A DNA stretch of 61,867 bases, counting the filler, from Fonticula-like sp. SCN 57-25 (taxonomy: Eukaryota): NCBI GenBank assembly GCA_001724245.1. It is 11 parts of 11 records of this genome, joined end to end, with 100 filler letters (N's around TTAATTAATTAA, not from the genome) between each part and the next. Parts side by side here need not be neighbours in the genome. Positions count along the whole stretch, not along the records: positions 56,351 to 61,867 come from MEDX01000561.1; 10 more parts are not named here. One strand, given 5' to 3'. A program made the position numbers and the translations under genes. Numbering within the stretch: position 1 is the stretch's first letter; the number at the start of each line of letters is the position of its first letter. Below the pieces are notes generated by a model, which saw only the letters and a list, made by a program, of their open reading frames with translations, made no database searches and was not told where the DNA came from. Below, piece after piece: positions 56,351 to 61,867 of this stretch.

Positions 56351-57088
56351 GAGACGCTTCCTCTGTTTGCGCGCGCGAGCGCCGACCAAGGCGGGCTTGG
56401 TTTCCTTCCAACAGACATTGGCATTATTCTGAGCGCGATGGGCTGTGTAATTTTGATTTACACGGTAGTGGCGTATCGGCCGCTGTCGGCGCGCGTCGGC
56501 CTCATGCCGCTGTTCCGCTGGTGCACGCTCATTTGCGTGCCGTGCTCGCTCGCGTGGATTGGCGTCCAACAGGCCGCCGGCAATGTTACTGACTCAGGGC
56601 TTTGGGCGCTTGTCCTCAGCAACCTTGTCCTGAGAGGTCTTTGCGGCGTCACAATATTCACGAGCGTCATGACGTTTGTCAACAATTCGGTGCCGCGCGA
56701 CAGAATGGGGCGCGCCAACGGTCTTGGCCAGACGTGGGCTGCGCTCGCGCGTGCTATTGGGCCGACCGTGGCGGGTGCATTCTGGTCGTTCACCGAGAAC
56801 AGCACTTTTCCTCTGCACGAGACGCTCTCGTTCATCCTCATGGCGCTCATGTTTGTCGGCCTCTACGCGGCAACCTTCACTTACCCCGAGTTTATCACAA
56901 GACCGTTCGCCGAGCGGTACACTGCCGAGGGCGGCGAAGAGACTGAGGAAGACGAGGCGGGCGAGGCGCAGGAGGAGCAGGAGGAGCAGCAGGGCTACGA
57001 TGTGGACGCGTGGATGGCGGCCGATCAGGACGACGACGACTTTGATGACGTCGTTCCGCTTCAAATGGCGCATACTTCTAAAGTGTAA
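56351..57088 (+). CDS. MFS transporter (ZIFL/DHA1-like), 5' partial, acidic tail
   Basis: GGLGF, NNSVPRDRMGRANGLGQT..RAIGP. Confidence 0.85.
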   Translation, partial: ETLPLFARASADQGGLGFLPTDIGIILSAMGCVILIYTVVAYRPLSARVGLMPLFRWCTLICVPCSLAWIGVQQAAGNVTDSGLWALVLSNLVLRGLCGVTIFTSVMTFVNNSVPRDRMGRANGLGQTWAALARAIGPTVAGAFWSFTENSTFPLHETLSFILMALMFVGLYAATFTYPEFITRPFAERYTAEGGEETEEDEAGEAQEEQEEQQGYDVDAWMAADQDDDDFDDVVPLQMAHTSKV

Positions 57089-57507
57089 ATGATGCTTTTT
57101 GTCGACTTTTTGATACCCGTGAATTGTGTATTATACATTTATTGATAATGTACTCTGTGAATGACATCCTTCTGGACCCGCGGCATGGTGTTATACTAGC
57201 GCGAGGCGATCAGCGTCAAGTGGGTGTAAACGAAATGTATGGATGGTGCACACACATTGGCACTCGTATATAGGTGTGTACAGTGTCGAGCACGCATGGC
57301 TAGCTTGGTGGGATCACAAAAACTTTGCCCTTCTCAGTGCCATCATCATCGGCCGCCTTTGCACTTTGATCAAAATCCGCCCCCGACTGATACCCTTGAC
57401 CCCGAGCCCCCTGGAGCGGGAGACGTCCGCAAGTTGCATCATGTTTAACTGGCTGTCGTCTCCTTTGGCGCCCCCTCCTTGGCCGTGTTACGACTACGAC
57501 ACGCTGA

Positions 57508-58935
57508 ATGCGGCCTTTTGGGCGTGACGACGGGGCGCCTTTGGCCGACGTGATGTTTGAGAAGCGGCGGCTATGGCGCAAGGAGATCCTTGGCGCGAGC
57601 ATCTGCATCATACTCATGTGCGTCGCGTGGATGCGCCCGCGGGCCTTTATCGCCTGCCCAGCGACAGTGTCGGAAAGCGCTCGCTTGACGCCGCCTGCTC
57701 TGTACGATATACTGCCTGATTTTGCGTTTCACGTCTACCCGCTGCCGCCGTCGCTGCTGGACGACCTCGTTAACAGCAGCAACCCGGAGGGGCTGCCCGT
57801 ACACCCGCTCCTCAACTGGCGCGATGACAACATGCAGGTCATGACGCCATACTTTATTACAAAGTTCCTCCCGCTGCATCCCCGCCACACGAAGGACCCT
57901 GAAAAGGCCGACATTTTTATCATCCCGCACGTCAGCCCGATGGCCATGTACGACCACGGAATTCGTAGTTGCTTTTACTGACGGCCGCGCTGAAGGCTTG
58001 TTGAAAACCCACACCATGCCGAGTATCGCGAGCGGTTAAAAACGTACCTTGCGACAAACTATAACCACTACATCCGGCGCCGCCGCGGCTCTGACCACTA
58101 TGTGTTTGATTTCACGGTTGGCTCCCAGTATGGCAGCATCTTTCCCGACATCCACAAGATGACGTACGAGCTACTACCTCACACTCTGCCGGTTCGCGAG
58201 TGGAGCCGTTCCTCCGACACGATCATCATGCCCTTTGTTGAAATGACGCCGCGCCTGGAGCAGCGGCAGCAAGCAGCCATTCGCCTCGGCGACGACGATG
58301 CGTTCCTCGCCTCGGAGCCGCCGCGCACCCTCTTTGCCTTTTACTCTGGCTCGAGCACGGGCCCCTCTGGGCGTCTCCGCGCGCGCATCATTGAGAGCAT
58401 GAGCGTGTACAATGACACGGTGCCGTACTACCTGAGCAACCGCCACAGCGCCGACAAGTACGACGTCATCTCGGACATGATGATGCGCAGCGTGTTCTGC
58501 CCCGCGCCGTCGGGCGATTCGCCGTCTGCACGCCGCCAGATCACCGCCGTCATGGCCGGCTGCATCCCTGTCATCATGAGCGACTTTATCTTGCACCCTT
58601 TTGGCGGCATCGTTGACTGGACGCGATTCAGTATCCAGCTGCCGACGCGCATCCTCGCGTACGAAAACTTTATCGACCGGCTCAGGCTTGTGCCGCAGGA
58701 GCGCATCAGGGAAATGCAAAAGGCGCTGCTGGCTGCGGCGAGGCGCTTTACGTATCACTTTGGCGCACCGAAAAAGGGCGACGTGCTCGACACACTCGTC
58801 GAGCGGCTCGCGCTGCACGCGTACAAGATCCGCGCCATGGACAACTGGATGATCTTTAGTAATGGTACAGAGTTCCACGAGCTCAAGGAGACTGGCGGGA
58901 AAGCGATCAATTTCTATCCCAACAATGTTGTATAG
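57508..58935 (+). CDS. Exostosin-like GT47 glycosyltransferase
   Basis: N-terminal TM, TKDPEKADIFIIP, RRGSDH, SVFCPAPSGDSPSARR, AGCIPVIMSD, LHPF; 48-nt intron 57948-57995. Confidence 0.9.
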
Positions 58936-59131
58936 ACGCTTCTTTGAATAGATGGTATGCGCACAAGCGCAGGCGCGAGCTACTTTTTGCACGAGCTTGT
59001 GTTCTTTGGCCATATATCTTTCCCAGTTTACATTACAATTGTATGTCAATAGTATTAATAAATCTACAGCAGAAATTGAAATAAAAAACAAAATAGCGCG
59101 CTCGTGCGCGGGCGAACAGGCCATCAGTGTA

Positions 59132-60364
59132 CTATGGGTTGGCGAGGCCATAGTAGCCGAACGGGTAGTAGAGGCCATACTGCTCTTTCTTGTACGCAAT
59201 GTACGCGTCCTTGGTCAGGTCAAGCCAGCGGTCCCACGTGTTTGTCTCAAGAGTGCGCTTTTGCCCGAGAGCGGCGAGGCGCAAGCGGCGGGGCTCGTCG
59301 CGCAGCAGCGCTTTTATCGTCTTGATAATGTGCTCGTCGGAATCCCACTCATTAATTTCAGTGACGAATTCGCGGTAAAATTCGGGCCTGTCGCGTGGAA
59401 TATTTCCGACAAGCGCGCATCCCGCAATGGCCGCCTCGGCGTACTTTTGCAGAGCGTAGCGGTAGACGCTCGTCGTCACGAGGCACACGCGCGCCGTCTT
59501 GTACTGCTCGGCAAAGACCGCCACTTGCGCATCGAGCGGGTGCACGCCCGGTTCGTCAGGCTCTGGCAGAAAAGTAATGTTCTTTCCCGGAGCGTCAAGC
59601 ATGTAGCCAGGGTGCTTGTACCACACGCCGCCCTCGATGCGGCCGCTCCGCACTAGCTCGACCAGGCGGGCGCGCAGCGGGTACACCTCGGCGCCAGCCG
59701 ATCCAGCAACCAGAACTGCGATCGGACGGTTGCGCGCGCTCAGCTCGCTCCGGAAAAAAATGGTGGGCTCGGCGGACTGCGGCGAGTGCTGGAACACGCG
59801 GCGCGCTGCCGTGTTGCTGTAAAGCTCCATCTCTTGCGAGTACGAAAACTGGACGATGCCGCACCCAAACTCGGTGATGTAGCGATCGCATCGCCGGCCC
59901 CAGCATTCATTCTCGCGAATCATAACAACAGCTTCACTGGATAGAGAATGCACCTCGTCGCTTGGGACGATGCCAAACTTGTAGATGATGTCAAAGTGCA
60001 CGGCGCCGTAGCGAGACATCAGATTCTCCCGGATCGTCGCCGAGTTGTTATAGCCGCGAAAGAAAGGACCCCACATAACAGCCTCCACACCGCTATGACG
60101 CTTGGCTGCGCGGTACATATTGGCAAAGTAGCGGTCCATAAAGGCGTCGTAGGATCCTGTCTTGTTCGACAGAAACAGGATCTTTAACGGGGACGGCAAA
60201 TTCCGATCGCCCCATTCCCATGTCGTTCTCGAATAATATGGAAATGTGACAGACGTAGTATCGCTTGGCCCACCAAACCAAAGTAAAAAAAATATTAGAA
60301 AAAGTGTACCGACGGCTGCGCCAACAGCGATGAGAACTCGCCGCGGCAGCCGCCACATCAACAT
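59132..60364 (-). CDS. Type II membrane GT-B (GT4/Glyco_trans_1_2-like) glycosyltransferase, intronless
   Basis: N-terminal TM, MDRYF, WGPFFRGY, YPLRARL, HPGY, YALQKYAEAAIAGCALVGNIP. Confidence 0.72.
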   Translation of the reverse strand: MLMWRLPRRVLIAVGAAVGTLFLIFFLLWFGGPSDTTSVTFPYYSRTTWEWGDRNLPSPLKILFLSNKTGSYDAFMDRYFANMYRAAKRHSGVEAVMWGPFFRGYNNSATIRENLMSRYGAVHFDIIYKFGIVPSDEVHSLSSEAVVMIRENECWGRRCDRYITEFGCGIVQFSYSQEMELYSNTAARRVFQHSPQSAEPTIFFRSELSARNRPIAVLVAGSAGAEVYPLRARLVELVRSGRIEGGVWYKHPGYMLDAPGKNITFLPEPDEPGVHPLDAQVAVFAEQYKTARVCLVTTSVYRYALQKYAEAAIAGCALVGNIPRDRPEFYREFVTEINEWDSDEHIIKTIKALLRDEPRRLRLAALGQKRTLETNTWDRWLDLTKDAYIAYKKEQYGLYYPFGYYGLANP

Positions 60365-60607
60365 GATGGTTGACGCCAGATGACACAATGACATTCAAGG
60401 TCGGTTTGAAACGTACTAGATTTCGACGCGCAGCCGACGCTCGCCGCCGCGGCGCGAGCCAAAGTGGACCGCTAGACATGGCGCGTACTCGACACGTTGA
60501 CACTGGTTGGACTGCCCCGTTTCTATCGCGGTATTGACGAAAGGAGGAATTGACGTCGGATGTGGCATCCATACCAGACAATGCCTTCAGATCCCGGTTC
60601 CCACACT

Positions 60608-61829
60608 ATGCTGACACGCACGCTAATAACTGGCCCAACTGGGGCAACTCTTTTCGTCGCTATTTGTCGTTTTCCCAACTGTCGTCGCGACGAGCTTCTG
60701 CTGCAAGTTGTCAGAGGCCAGTAGACGCGACATCAATCTGTTGCGCTCAGCATCACGTCCCTTGAACCTGCGCTTTCACTTGCGGTCGGGCGACCGTCGG
60801 CGACACTCGACAGACCTCGTGTTGTTATTTTCGTAGGCGAGTAGTCGCCCCTCCATTGATTGCCGCCTATTTCAGCAATTGCTGCGAGTTCTTTCAACGT
60901 TGACGTTAGCGATCTCTTTTCGTCAGTTAGTGGCGAGGTCAGGAGATTGCTCACCTCCATCGGGGGTTCGAGCCATGACACACTGCGCAATTTGAACGGC
61001 AAATCAGTGATTCTGATCGGCGAGTCTGGCGCCGGCAAGACCTCTTTTATTGAACTTTTTCTTAACTATGTGGAGTTTGCGTTTGACTACACTAAATATC
61101 GAACCAGGATCGACATTGATGTGGAGAAAAACAGATGCACGACTGTCGCGGCGTCGGATGATGTCACAAGCCAGGAGTCGGCAACTATGCGGCCGAACAT
61201 TTATACCGTGAAGATCCCATCCGGCGGCTCTTTCCAAGTCATTGACACTCCTGGCCTCAATGACTCGGCTGGCGGACTACGCGACGAAGAGCATCTCGAT
61301 AGTATCTATCGCTGTCTCAAATCCGTCGTGAATGACACCGAAGTAACATGCGCGTTGTTCTTTTACGAAGCCAAGAATGCTCGTAACCTCTATGTTCGTG
61401 ACTACGTTTATGAGTCGTTCAAGAACTTCTTTGCTTCATCCGATTCGCTGTACTTTATCGGAACCAAGATGACCGTCAGGACCCTGCGGGCGAACTCGGA
61501 TGCTTGCATTTTTCCAGTACAATCGAGTTTCTACTTTGACAACCCTTATGTGGCATACGTTTCGCTACAGAACCTCCGCATAATGATTTGTGACAAGCCT
61601 AACGTGGAGGACCCTGAAGAGGACGCACTAATGTTATCGCAATTACAAGTATCCCTCACGCTCGGTGAACGCAGCGCGAAACAAACGATATTACTGATGC
61701 TCAGCTCATCGCGGAAGATTGTCAATTTATCCGAAATGGTGAACAACTACGAATTCTATATGAAGATGCGGACTAAAGTCCGTGAGTTCATCAAGCTGTC
61801 GGACATGAACTTGGTTTTGCTGGATATGC
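60608..61829 (+). CDS. AIG1/septin-like P-loop GTPase with no stop codon; runs into the telomere (not in ORF track)
   Basis: The frame from 60876 is stop-free: SVILIGESGAGKTSF (G1), ESAT (G2), VIDTPGLNDSAG (G3), IGTK (G4), FYFDN. Upstream exons 60608-60720 and 60751-60836 are inferred. Confidence 0.85.
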
Positions 61830-61867
61830 TTAGGGTTAGGGTTAGGGTTAGGGTTAGGGTTAGGGTT
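61830..61867 (+). repeat. Telomeric repeat (TTAGGG)6+TT
   Basis: Perfect hexamer repeats at the contig end, G-rich strand pointing outward. Confidence 0.93.

Follow-up and report, generated by a model that had tools for sequence, protein, structure and literature searches.

MoTeRs are retroelements of the CRE type with a restriction-like endonuclease. In Magnaporthe (Pyricularia) oryzae, MoTeR1, MoTeR2, and their relics have 3' ends set on unique DNA via short variable telomere tracts, an arrangement also present in the genome studied here, and the relics are described as being without target-site duplications (PMC7367193, PMC8381367). De novo telomeres of the same fungus cut the sequence at seeds of 1–4 nt, and those which heal breaks within genes (e.g., rDNA truncations) place an abrupt perfect array immediately on coding sequence (PMC7367193). 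In addition, several LINEs with an AP endonuclease (APE) target telomere repeats, such as Tx1-1_ACar of the anole and TRAS/SART of Bombyx (R1 clade) (PMC10088271, PMC4640811).

Here, we analyzed a GTPase gene which had been predicted to run directly into a telomere. It lies in a window of 61,867 nt (the whole stretch of DNA analyzed), which is composed of 11 contigs of 5514–5567 nt in nearly descending length, joined by identical 100-nt N-padded spacers; the first piece is contig C551 and the last is C561 of assembly G000 (9.5 Mb, 749 contigs). The 11 contigs are unrelated, and gene neighborhoods across spacers mean nothing. C561 (positions 56351..61867, 5517 nt, no strand assigned) comes from a metagenome bin, and a bioreactor metagenome was the best-matching source of its sequence in the run listing. 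The junction between the GTPase and the TTAGGG repeats is at the end of this 5.5-kb contig, and the missing subtelomeric buffer, to which the original prediction had drawn attention, is therefore uninformative about the chromosome arm.

Unlike MoTeRs, whose intact copies are found solely in telomeres, the LINEs of this genome have RVT_1 and zf-RVT domains and relatives with the endonuclease domain PF03372, and element junctions favor C/TTAGG (the slash marks the start of the repeat) rather than the G/TTAGG of an existing telomere. They share with Tx1-1_ACar and TRAS/SART a non-LTR organization with AP endonuclease, telomere repeats, and the polarity of an inward-facing 3' end; however, Tx1-1_ACar and TRAS/SART enter telomere arrays, whereas the tails here are short (at most 31 perfect nt) and situated in unique DNA or stacked. 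In comparison with de novo healing, the window has the same abrupt perfect array, but only 6.3 units of it, in a genome with interstitial look-alikes. By analogy, the case in the window resembles MoTeR relics and de novo telomeres in the way it works, but its elements are, on this comparison, not MoTeRs; the LINEs appear to be nearer to APE-type telomere-associated LINEs (Tx1-1_ACar, TRAS/SART).

The GTPase Frame and Its Truncation

The GTPase frame is indeed free of stop codons up to and through the repeat, as had been noted: it is open over positions 60860–61867 (336 residues) and has LVLLDM-LRVRVRVRVRVRV as its end, LVLLDM being followed by CTT AGG GTT. The tract itself (61830..61867, + strand) consists of 38 nt of TTAGGG, or 6.3 units, perfect from the first unit as originally claimed (TRF 100%), and ends in GGGTT at the contig end, with its G-rich strand running 5' to 3' toward that end.

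The TTAGGG repeat is stop-free in two of three frames, and thus any break in the phase found in the window leaves an open frame. This bears on two proposals of the original prediction, namely a developmentally fragmented end and a non-stop or poly-RV product. Programmed chromosome fragmentation, or a functional product of that kind, is in our opinion scarcely credible. The open frame through the repeat is the one point in its favor; on the other hand, ciliate-type fragmentation is characterized by many capped fragments, and listing the TTAGGG-ended contigs, as had been suggested, yielded C561 alone (1/749). None of the other 748 contigs ended in a TTAGG-, TTAGGG-, or TTTAGGG-type array (16 matches in the search, 35 in the control), the segment is present on a minority of molecules, and the RV tail (residues 325–336) was unstructured in the model (pLDDT < 50).

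Based on profile, alignment, and structural model, the exon (60876..61829, + strand) encodes a septin/AIG1/GIMAP-like GTPase truncated inside its last helix. The G1 motif GESGAGKT (61019–61042, +) and the G3 motif DTPG (61244–61255, +), the latter followed by three helices, are common to this protein and the AIG1/GIMAP/Toc34/septin-like TRAFAC GTPases. The canonical G4 motif [NT]KxD is absent, with GTKM in the window GTPase and ATH/ASH/STH in its relatives. Pfam analysis gave a weak match to MMR_HSR1 (E 4.4e-6) and 19.4 bits for AIG1, which is under the cut-off of 27, with Septin not reaching its cut-off either; a PDB sequence search returned P-loop matches only. Atlas neighbors were eukaryotic AIG1/septin-like clusters, and the top fold matches of the model (pLDDT 66) were GIMAP7 (E 1.5e-6) and Toc34 (E 9e-6) with TM scores of 0.30–0.35. 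These similarities suggest that the protein works like an AIG1/GIMAP/septin-like GTPase and sits in a subfamily without a name.

A plausible acceptor AG was found at 60874–60875, and the sequence suggests that 60841..60875 (+) is probably a 35-nt GT..AG intron ahead of the GTPase exon, possibly preceded by a 4-nt micro-exon. The sole upstream ATG candidates (60478, 60560, 60581, and 60608, within 60478..60610, +) all lie 5' of the haplotype branch described below. A sequence scan of 60609–60974 detected no ATG, and the first in-frame ATG of the GTPase frame is at 61187, after the P-loop. The frame is less GC-rich than its neighbors, in agreement with the original observation: 47.6% GC and GC3 of 0.60, versus 57–60% and 0.70–0.79 in four neighboring frames. 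The accompanying idea of a fast-evolving subtelomeric family found no counterpart in G000, where three protein searches for a paralog or full-length copy (with a coarse first-look filter) each returned only the GTPase itself.

Using phmmer, we identified 217 proteins related to the GTPase at E ≤ 0.001, 12 of them at E ≤ 1e-10, with 27–38% identity for the best relatives. Eight relatives were aligned. Seven continue for 110–381 residues beyond the junction column and have, without exception, a CxxC motif there, whereas the eighth (P0004) ends 6 residues past it. The window GTPase is therefore truncated relative to these proteins: the C-terminal CxxC and helical domain, which is present in 7/8 relatives and distinguishes them from named AIG1-type families, is missing. 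The exon, which had been called intact, is so with respect to the G domain and the three helices, but not to its Cys-containing, helical C-terminal half. The last helix of the model (residues 290–327) runs into the junction. Taken together, the alignment and the model indicate that the gene is cut at the TTAGGG junction and that its helical C-terminus is lost.

The missing half was not found in G000 (a low-sensitivity search in an incomplete bin). Among 1869 candidate proteins of 177–566 aa no near-identical full-length protein was detected, and among 5351 longer candidates P0002 was the only near relative found. None of 201 pattern matches in metagenome contigs, a set from which records of this genome were perhaps excluded, represented a relative locus. 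Seven eukaryote-type proteins (P0002, P0003, P0005, P0006, P0008, P0009, and P0011) form an unnamed GTPase subfamily whose members combine a G domain and helices with a CxxC region and a helical block that is conserved; P0006 additionally ends in a GT4-conflict domain.

A canonical donor hexamer, GTGAGT, is present at 61782 and is the best donor candidate in the GTPase exon. Splicing from this site to a normal terminal exon would place the tract in an intron, and an upstream donor of this kind had been named in advance as evidence against a cut gene. However, the similarity to P0003 and P0005 reaches query residues 321–322 of 323 and hence implies that 61782–61829 is coding, and there is no GT within 61820–61829, which makes the intron reading highly improbable. 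At the junction, SDMNLVL in the window corresponds to SDCNLAL in P0003, and the match to P0005 covers the CTT codon at the junction, which is compatible with a 2-nt seed.

Retroelements with Telomere-Repeat Tails

The 12-mer of two TTAGGG units occurs at five loci in the 9.5 Mb assembly versus one for the control, which is not due to chance. Besides the window, loci with at least two perfect units are located on C608, C26, C32, and C699. All four are interstitial, with an element 3' end downstream of the tract on the G-strand, and these tracts are interstitial 3' tails of retroelements, including L1-like LINEs. The original observation is thus confirmed only in part: the repeat in the window is real and perfect, but a telomere is unproven, as only 38 nt of the repeat are assembled and the other four multi-unit loci are interstitial. 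A few TTAGGG units at a contig end should accordingly not be taken for a telomere where retroelements have tails of this repeat.

This genome contains L1-group LINEs and a noncoding family of related appearance, with (CCCTAA)n-like 3' tails. Family A is represented by L040 (another assembly of the C608 locus), in which a 991-aa ORF with RVT_1 (E 9.7e-29) and zf-RVT domains lies directly upstream of the family A 3' UTR and tail. L040 starts inside the endonuclease; the AP endonuclease domain PF03372 is found in its relatives P0159 and P0160 (62% and 51% identity). At the C608 locus, three of three assemblies contain the same interstitial tail of 39 nt. LINE subfamily B has three copies. Family D, an element of about 2 kb without a long ORF, is present in 12 copies that share their 3' end and vary in 5' extent, e.g., at G000:C320 822–2766 (L073) and G000:C482 4064–5851 (L074). 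As no ORF was found, its retroposed nature is inferred, and family D is perhaps a nonautonomous partner of the LINEs. On C699 (L025, L031), four element 3' ends of different families are stacked head to tail.

G000 contains no assembled LINE body. A search of G000 for RVT_1 revealed five loci, of which C500 has a Ty3/gypsy-type pol, while C710, C702, C466, and C118 were of LTR type by eye; none of the five is TERT-like. The TERT domains PF12009 and PF21399 had no match in G000 in an exon-by-exon search run without positive control. No LINE relative was found in the viral contigs. A 16-mer gave 31 matches in those contigs, one of which had a tail-like word, and all were treated as chance.

To characterize the junctions between elements and host DNA, 22 junction rows were listed; the internal row of C26 is a chance motif and was dropped, leaving 21. 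C191 has no junction in its contig, and the C/TTAGGG word of C50, which lies in a low-complexity satellite, was left out of all counts. CTTAGG is found on the G-strand at the host side in 8 of the 21 junctions, and the other 13 differ. For clean tails that start with TTAG, the preceding base is C in 8/9 and G in one (8/12 if three degenerate tails are included), compared with a background of 39/319 (12%, or 16% with G excluded). The binomial P-values are 4e-7 (8/9) and 1.5e-5 (8/12), for copies that are not fully independent. Family D contributes seven of the eight signature junctions, with one D-like end counted. Given the partial dependence of copies and the 13/21 junctions that differ, C/TTAGG is a several-fold rather than a decisive argument.

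By template logic, telomerase is expected to favor G before TTAG or to be indifferent. The C/TTAGG preference predicts either the endonuclease target or the RNA 3' end, and as such is a reusable result. No CTTAGG junction preference of an L1-group LINE was found in the literature searched, which included few subscription journals.

The perfect stretches of the 21 element tails measure 31, 20, 14, and 12 nt, with the rest at 8 nt or less, and whole tails of about 40–48 nt exist. No target-site duplication was evident by eye at two short copies. Folding of element 3' ends, which was not used as evidence, gave z-scores of −2.3 and −2.1 for two and 0.1 and 0.5 for two others. An extra pattern search produced 14 matches versus 10 for the control and no new junction, seven new matches being without element similarity; a single weak Rfam match (E 0.36) in seven loci was rejected.

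Several other features were observed at these loci. C608 (L024, L040) and C699 contain short unique cassettes between two inward-facing LINE 3' ends, and the cassette on C699 (L025 4668–5507) encodes a GIY-YIG domain protein (PF19239, E 1.3e-7). At the end of C502 (L030), the tail of the same family A 3' end consists of about 48 nt of (CAA)n, (GTT)n on the other strand, instead of (CCCTAA)n. A short repeat with a small palindrome is present about 50–350 nt from element tails (L024 865–937, L063 338–398, L073 5–167, and L076 728–796). A contig with LINE relics (G000:C745) has a weak OrsD/DUF3505 match (L029 568–1029, − strand, E 4e-4, under the cut-off), a domain of fungal telomere-linked helicases.

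Origin of the Repeat Tract

The junction in the window (61829..61834, +) reads C/TTAGG, within TGC/TTAGGG, which is the signature of the retroelement 3' junctions of this genome; the favored junction CTTAGG matches it in form and polarity, and about 40% of molecules carry the segment. We consider it somewhat better than even that the tract is the 3' tail of a telomere-repeat-tailed retroelement lying antisense in the GTPase exon of one haplotype or strain. This reading is consistent with the other multi-unit loci (4/4), the C/TTAGG junction, the stop at GGGTT, the lack of other array-ended contigs, and, weakly, the lack of a TERT match. GGGTT is the commonest exit point for tails in families A, B, and D, a point that would be hit by chance in one case of six. 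An interstitial repeat, which the original prediction had listed as an outcome that would speak against it, is thus better supported than a telomere by the four interstitial tails and the C/TTAGG signature.

On the other hand, no element sequence was found beyond the tract, either in the window or in the four runs compared. Other contigs reach about 99 nt into shared elements, which C561, at less than half the depth, does not. The 38 perfect bases are longer than the longest perfect stretch (31 nt) in any of the 21 element tails, the C-terminal half was not found in G000, 13/21 junctions lack CTTAGG, and no ORF was found for family D, the source of seven of the eight signature junctions. Moreover, a seed of 1–4 nt followed by perfect repeats also results from telomerase healing (PMC7367193).

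If the tract is an element tail, the exon may have been nicked by the element endonuclease at a CTTAG-like site or immediately beside one, or an existing break may have been used. The exposed 3' end would then anneal to the CCCUAA repeats in which the element RNA ends and prime reverse transcription, during which several repeat units would be copied. The element body would lie just past the point at which the contig, assembled at low depth, breaks off, and beyond the element would follow either the remaining chromosome, including the C-terminal half, or, if the element capped a break, a loss. The result would be a broken allele of a single-copy accessory gene, whose transcript would contain a few RV codons and then antisense element. 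On this most likely reading, one copy of an accessory GTPase is broken by a disruption of the kind that retroelement insertions or healed breaks are known to cause, which matters little.

A different origin is plain telomerase healing, in which the exon broke, a TT or TTA seed was extended, and the distal part was lost. The polarity is correct, the perfect repeats exceed any element tail and continue to the contig end, the segment is haplotype-specific, and searches of G000 did not recover the C-terminal half. Furthermore, seeds of 1–4 nt were used in 19 of the 24 de novo events in Magnaporthe (PMC7367193). However, healing leaves unexplained why the junction matches C/TTAGG, for which the background is 12% (16% if G is excluded), none of the 748 other contigs is telomere-ended, and no TERT match was obtained in an uncontrolled search; we judge it unlikely.

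The two processes might also have acted together: a LINE cut and laid down its tail at CTTAGG, the insertion was aborted or the interstitial tract broke later, and telomerase extended the tail. Such an element-seeded telomere would account together for the signature of the junction, a perfect tract longer than any element tail, and the absence of both the element and the C-terminus; in Magnaporthe, interstitial tracts were concluded to promote breakage from three units upward (PMC7367193). It requires two events, however, and TERT was not found (no positive control), and we regard it as about as unlikely as plain healing. The claim that a healed break removed the helical C-terminus therefore stands insofar as the C-terminus is lost at the junction, whereas healing as the cause is unlikely in its plain form and about as unlikely in its element-seeded form.

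The most far-reaching interpretation, which is quite doubtful, is that an L1-group LINE family with CCCUAA-ended RNA breaks chromosomes and seeds telomeres, cutting unique DNA at CTTAGG and laying down TTAGGG units, which would either prime the insertion of the LINE or be extended into a telomere, with the locus as a fresh, still heterozygous chromosome end inside a gene. In its boldest form, the elements themselves may supply the terminal repeats, no TERT having been found. A true end at this locus, if shown by reads, would be direct evidence of a LINE seeding a new telomere inside a gene.

Depth and the Assembly-Graph Branch

Run X1 is the probable source run, from which contigs were used. 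Of the 16 runs listed for this sequence, small word shares in 10 were not used, and no RNA source was among those listed. Positions 56352–60628 correspond to a single X1 record with a depth of 16.6. At 60628..60629 (no strand), the assembly graph branches into the window path (depth 6.5, then 6.3) and another, deeper path (10.3), which ends in 26 nt of different sequence and is absent from G000. The two path depths sum to about 16.6, which suggests two haplotypes or strains at about 40:60. The window segment has about 40% of the depth, a value which does not exclude 50:50 and which is no share of cells.

No rejoining of the alternative path was seen among the X1 records listed, and its 26-nt end had no match in G000, the viral contigs, or 60 loci. 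This path may be a repeat or a replacement which removes the GTPase. All upstream ATG candidates precede the branch, so that the GTPase is probably native to this locus, and it may be absent from the other path as well.

An assembly or library artefact, i.e., a chimeric join of the exon and telomeric DNA, would agree with the low depth, the one probable source run, and the fact that, among the records listed, none from other runs spans the junction (parts of the GTPase are present in X2, X3, and X5, with X2 stopping at 61812). In contrast, an independently built X1 contig (590 nt, depth 6.3) has 41 letters past 61818, i.e., about 30 nt of repeat as inferred from record coordinates, which makes a single chimeric read unlikely, and the junction carries a biological signature. 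Such an artefact is, in our estimate, very unlikely.

The divergent neighbor of the GTPase, a glycosyltransferase-like frame (PF13524, 59132..60394, − strand), has full depth and is unaffected. On the same contig it is convergent with an Exostosin GT47 gene (57508–58935), which has a probable intron of about 31 nt. Minor variation was also present in other runs: one 151-nt record of X2 lacks 3 nt, in frame, where the P-loop motif begins (window position 61018), and a piece from X5 has 10 differences at 60856–60981.
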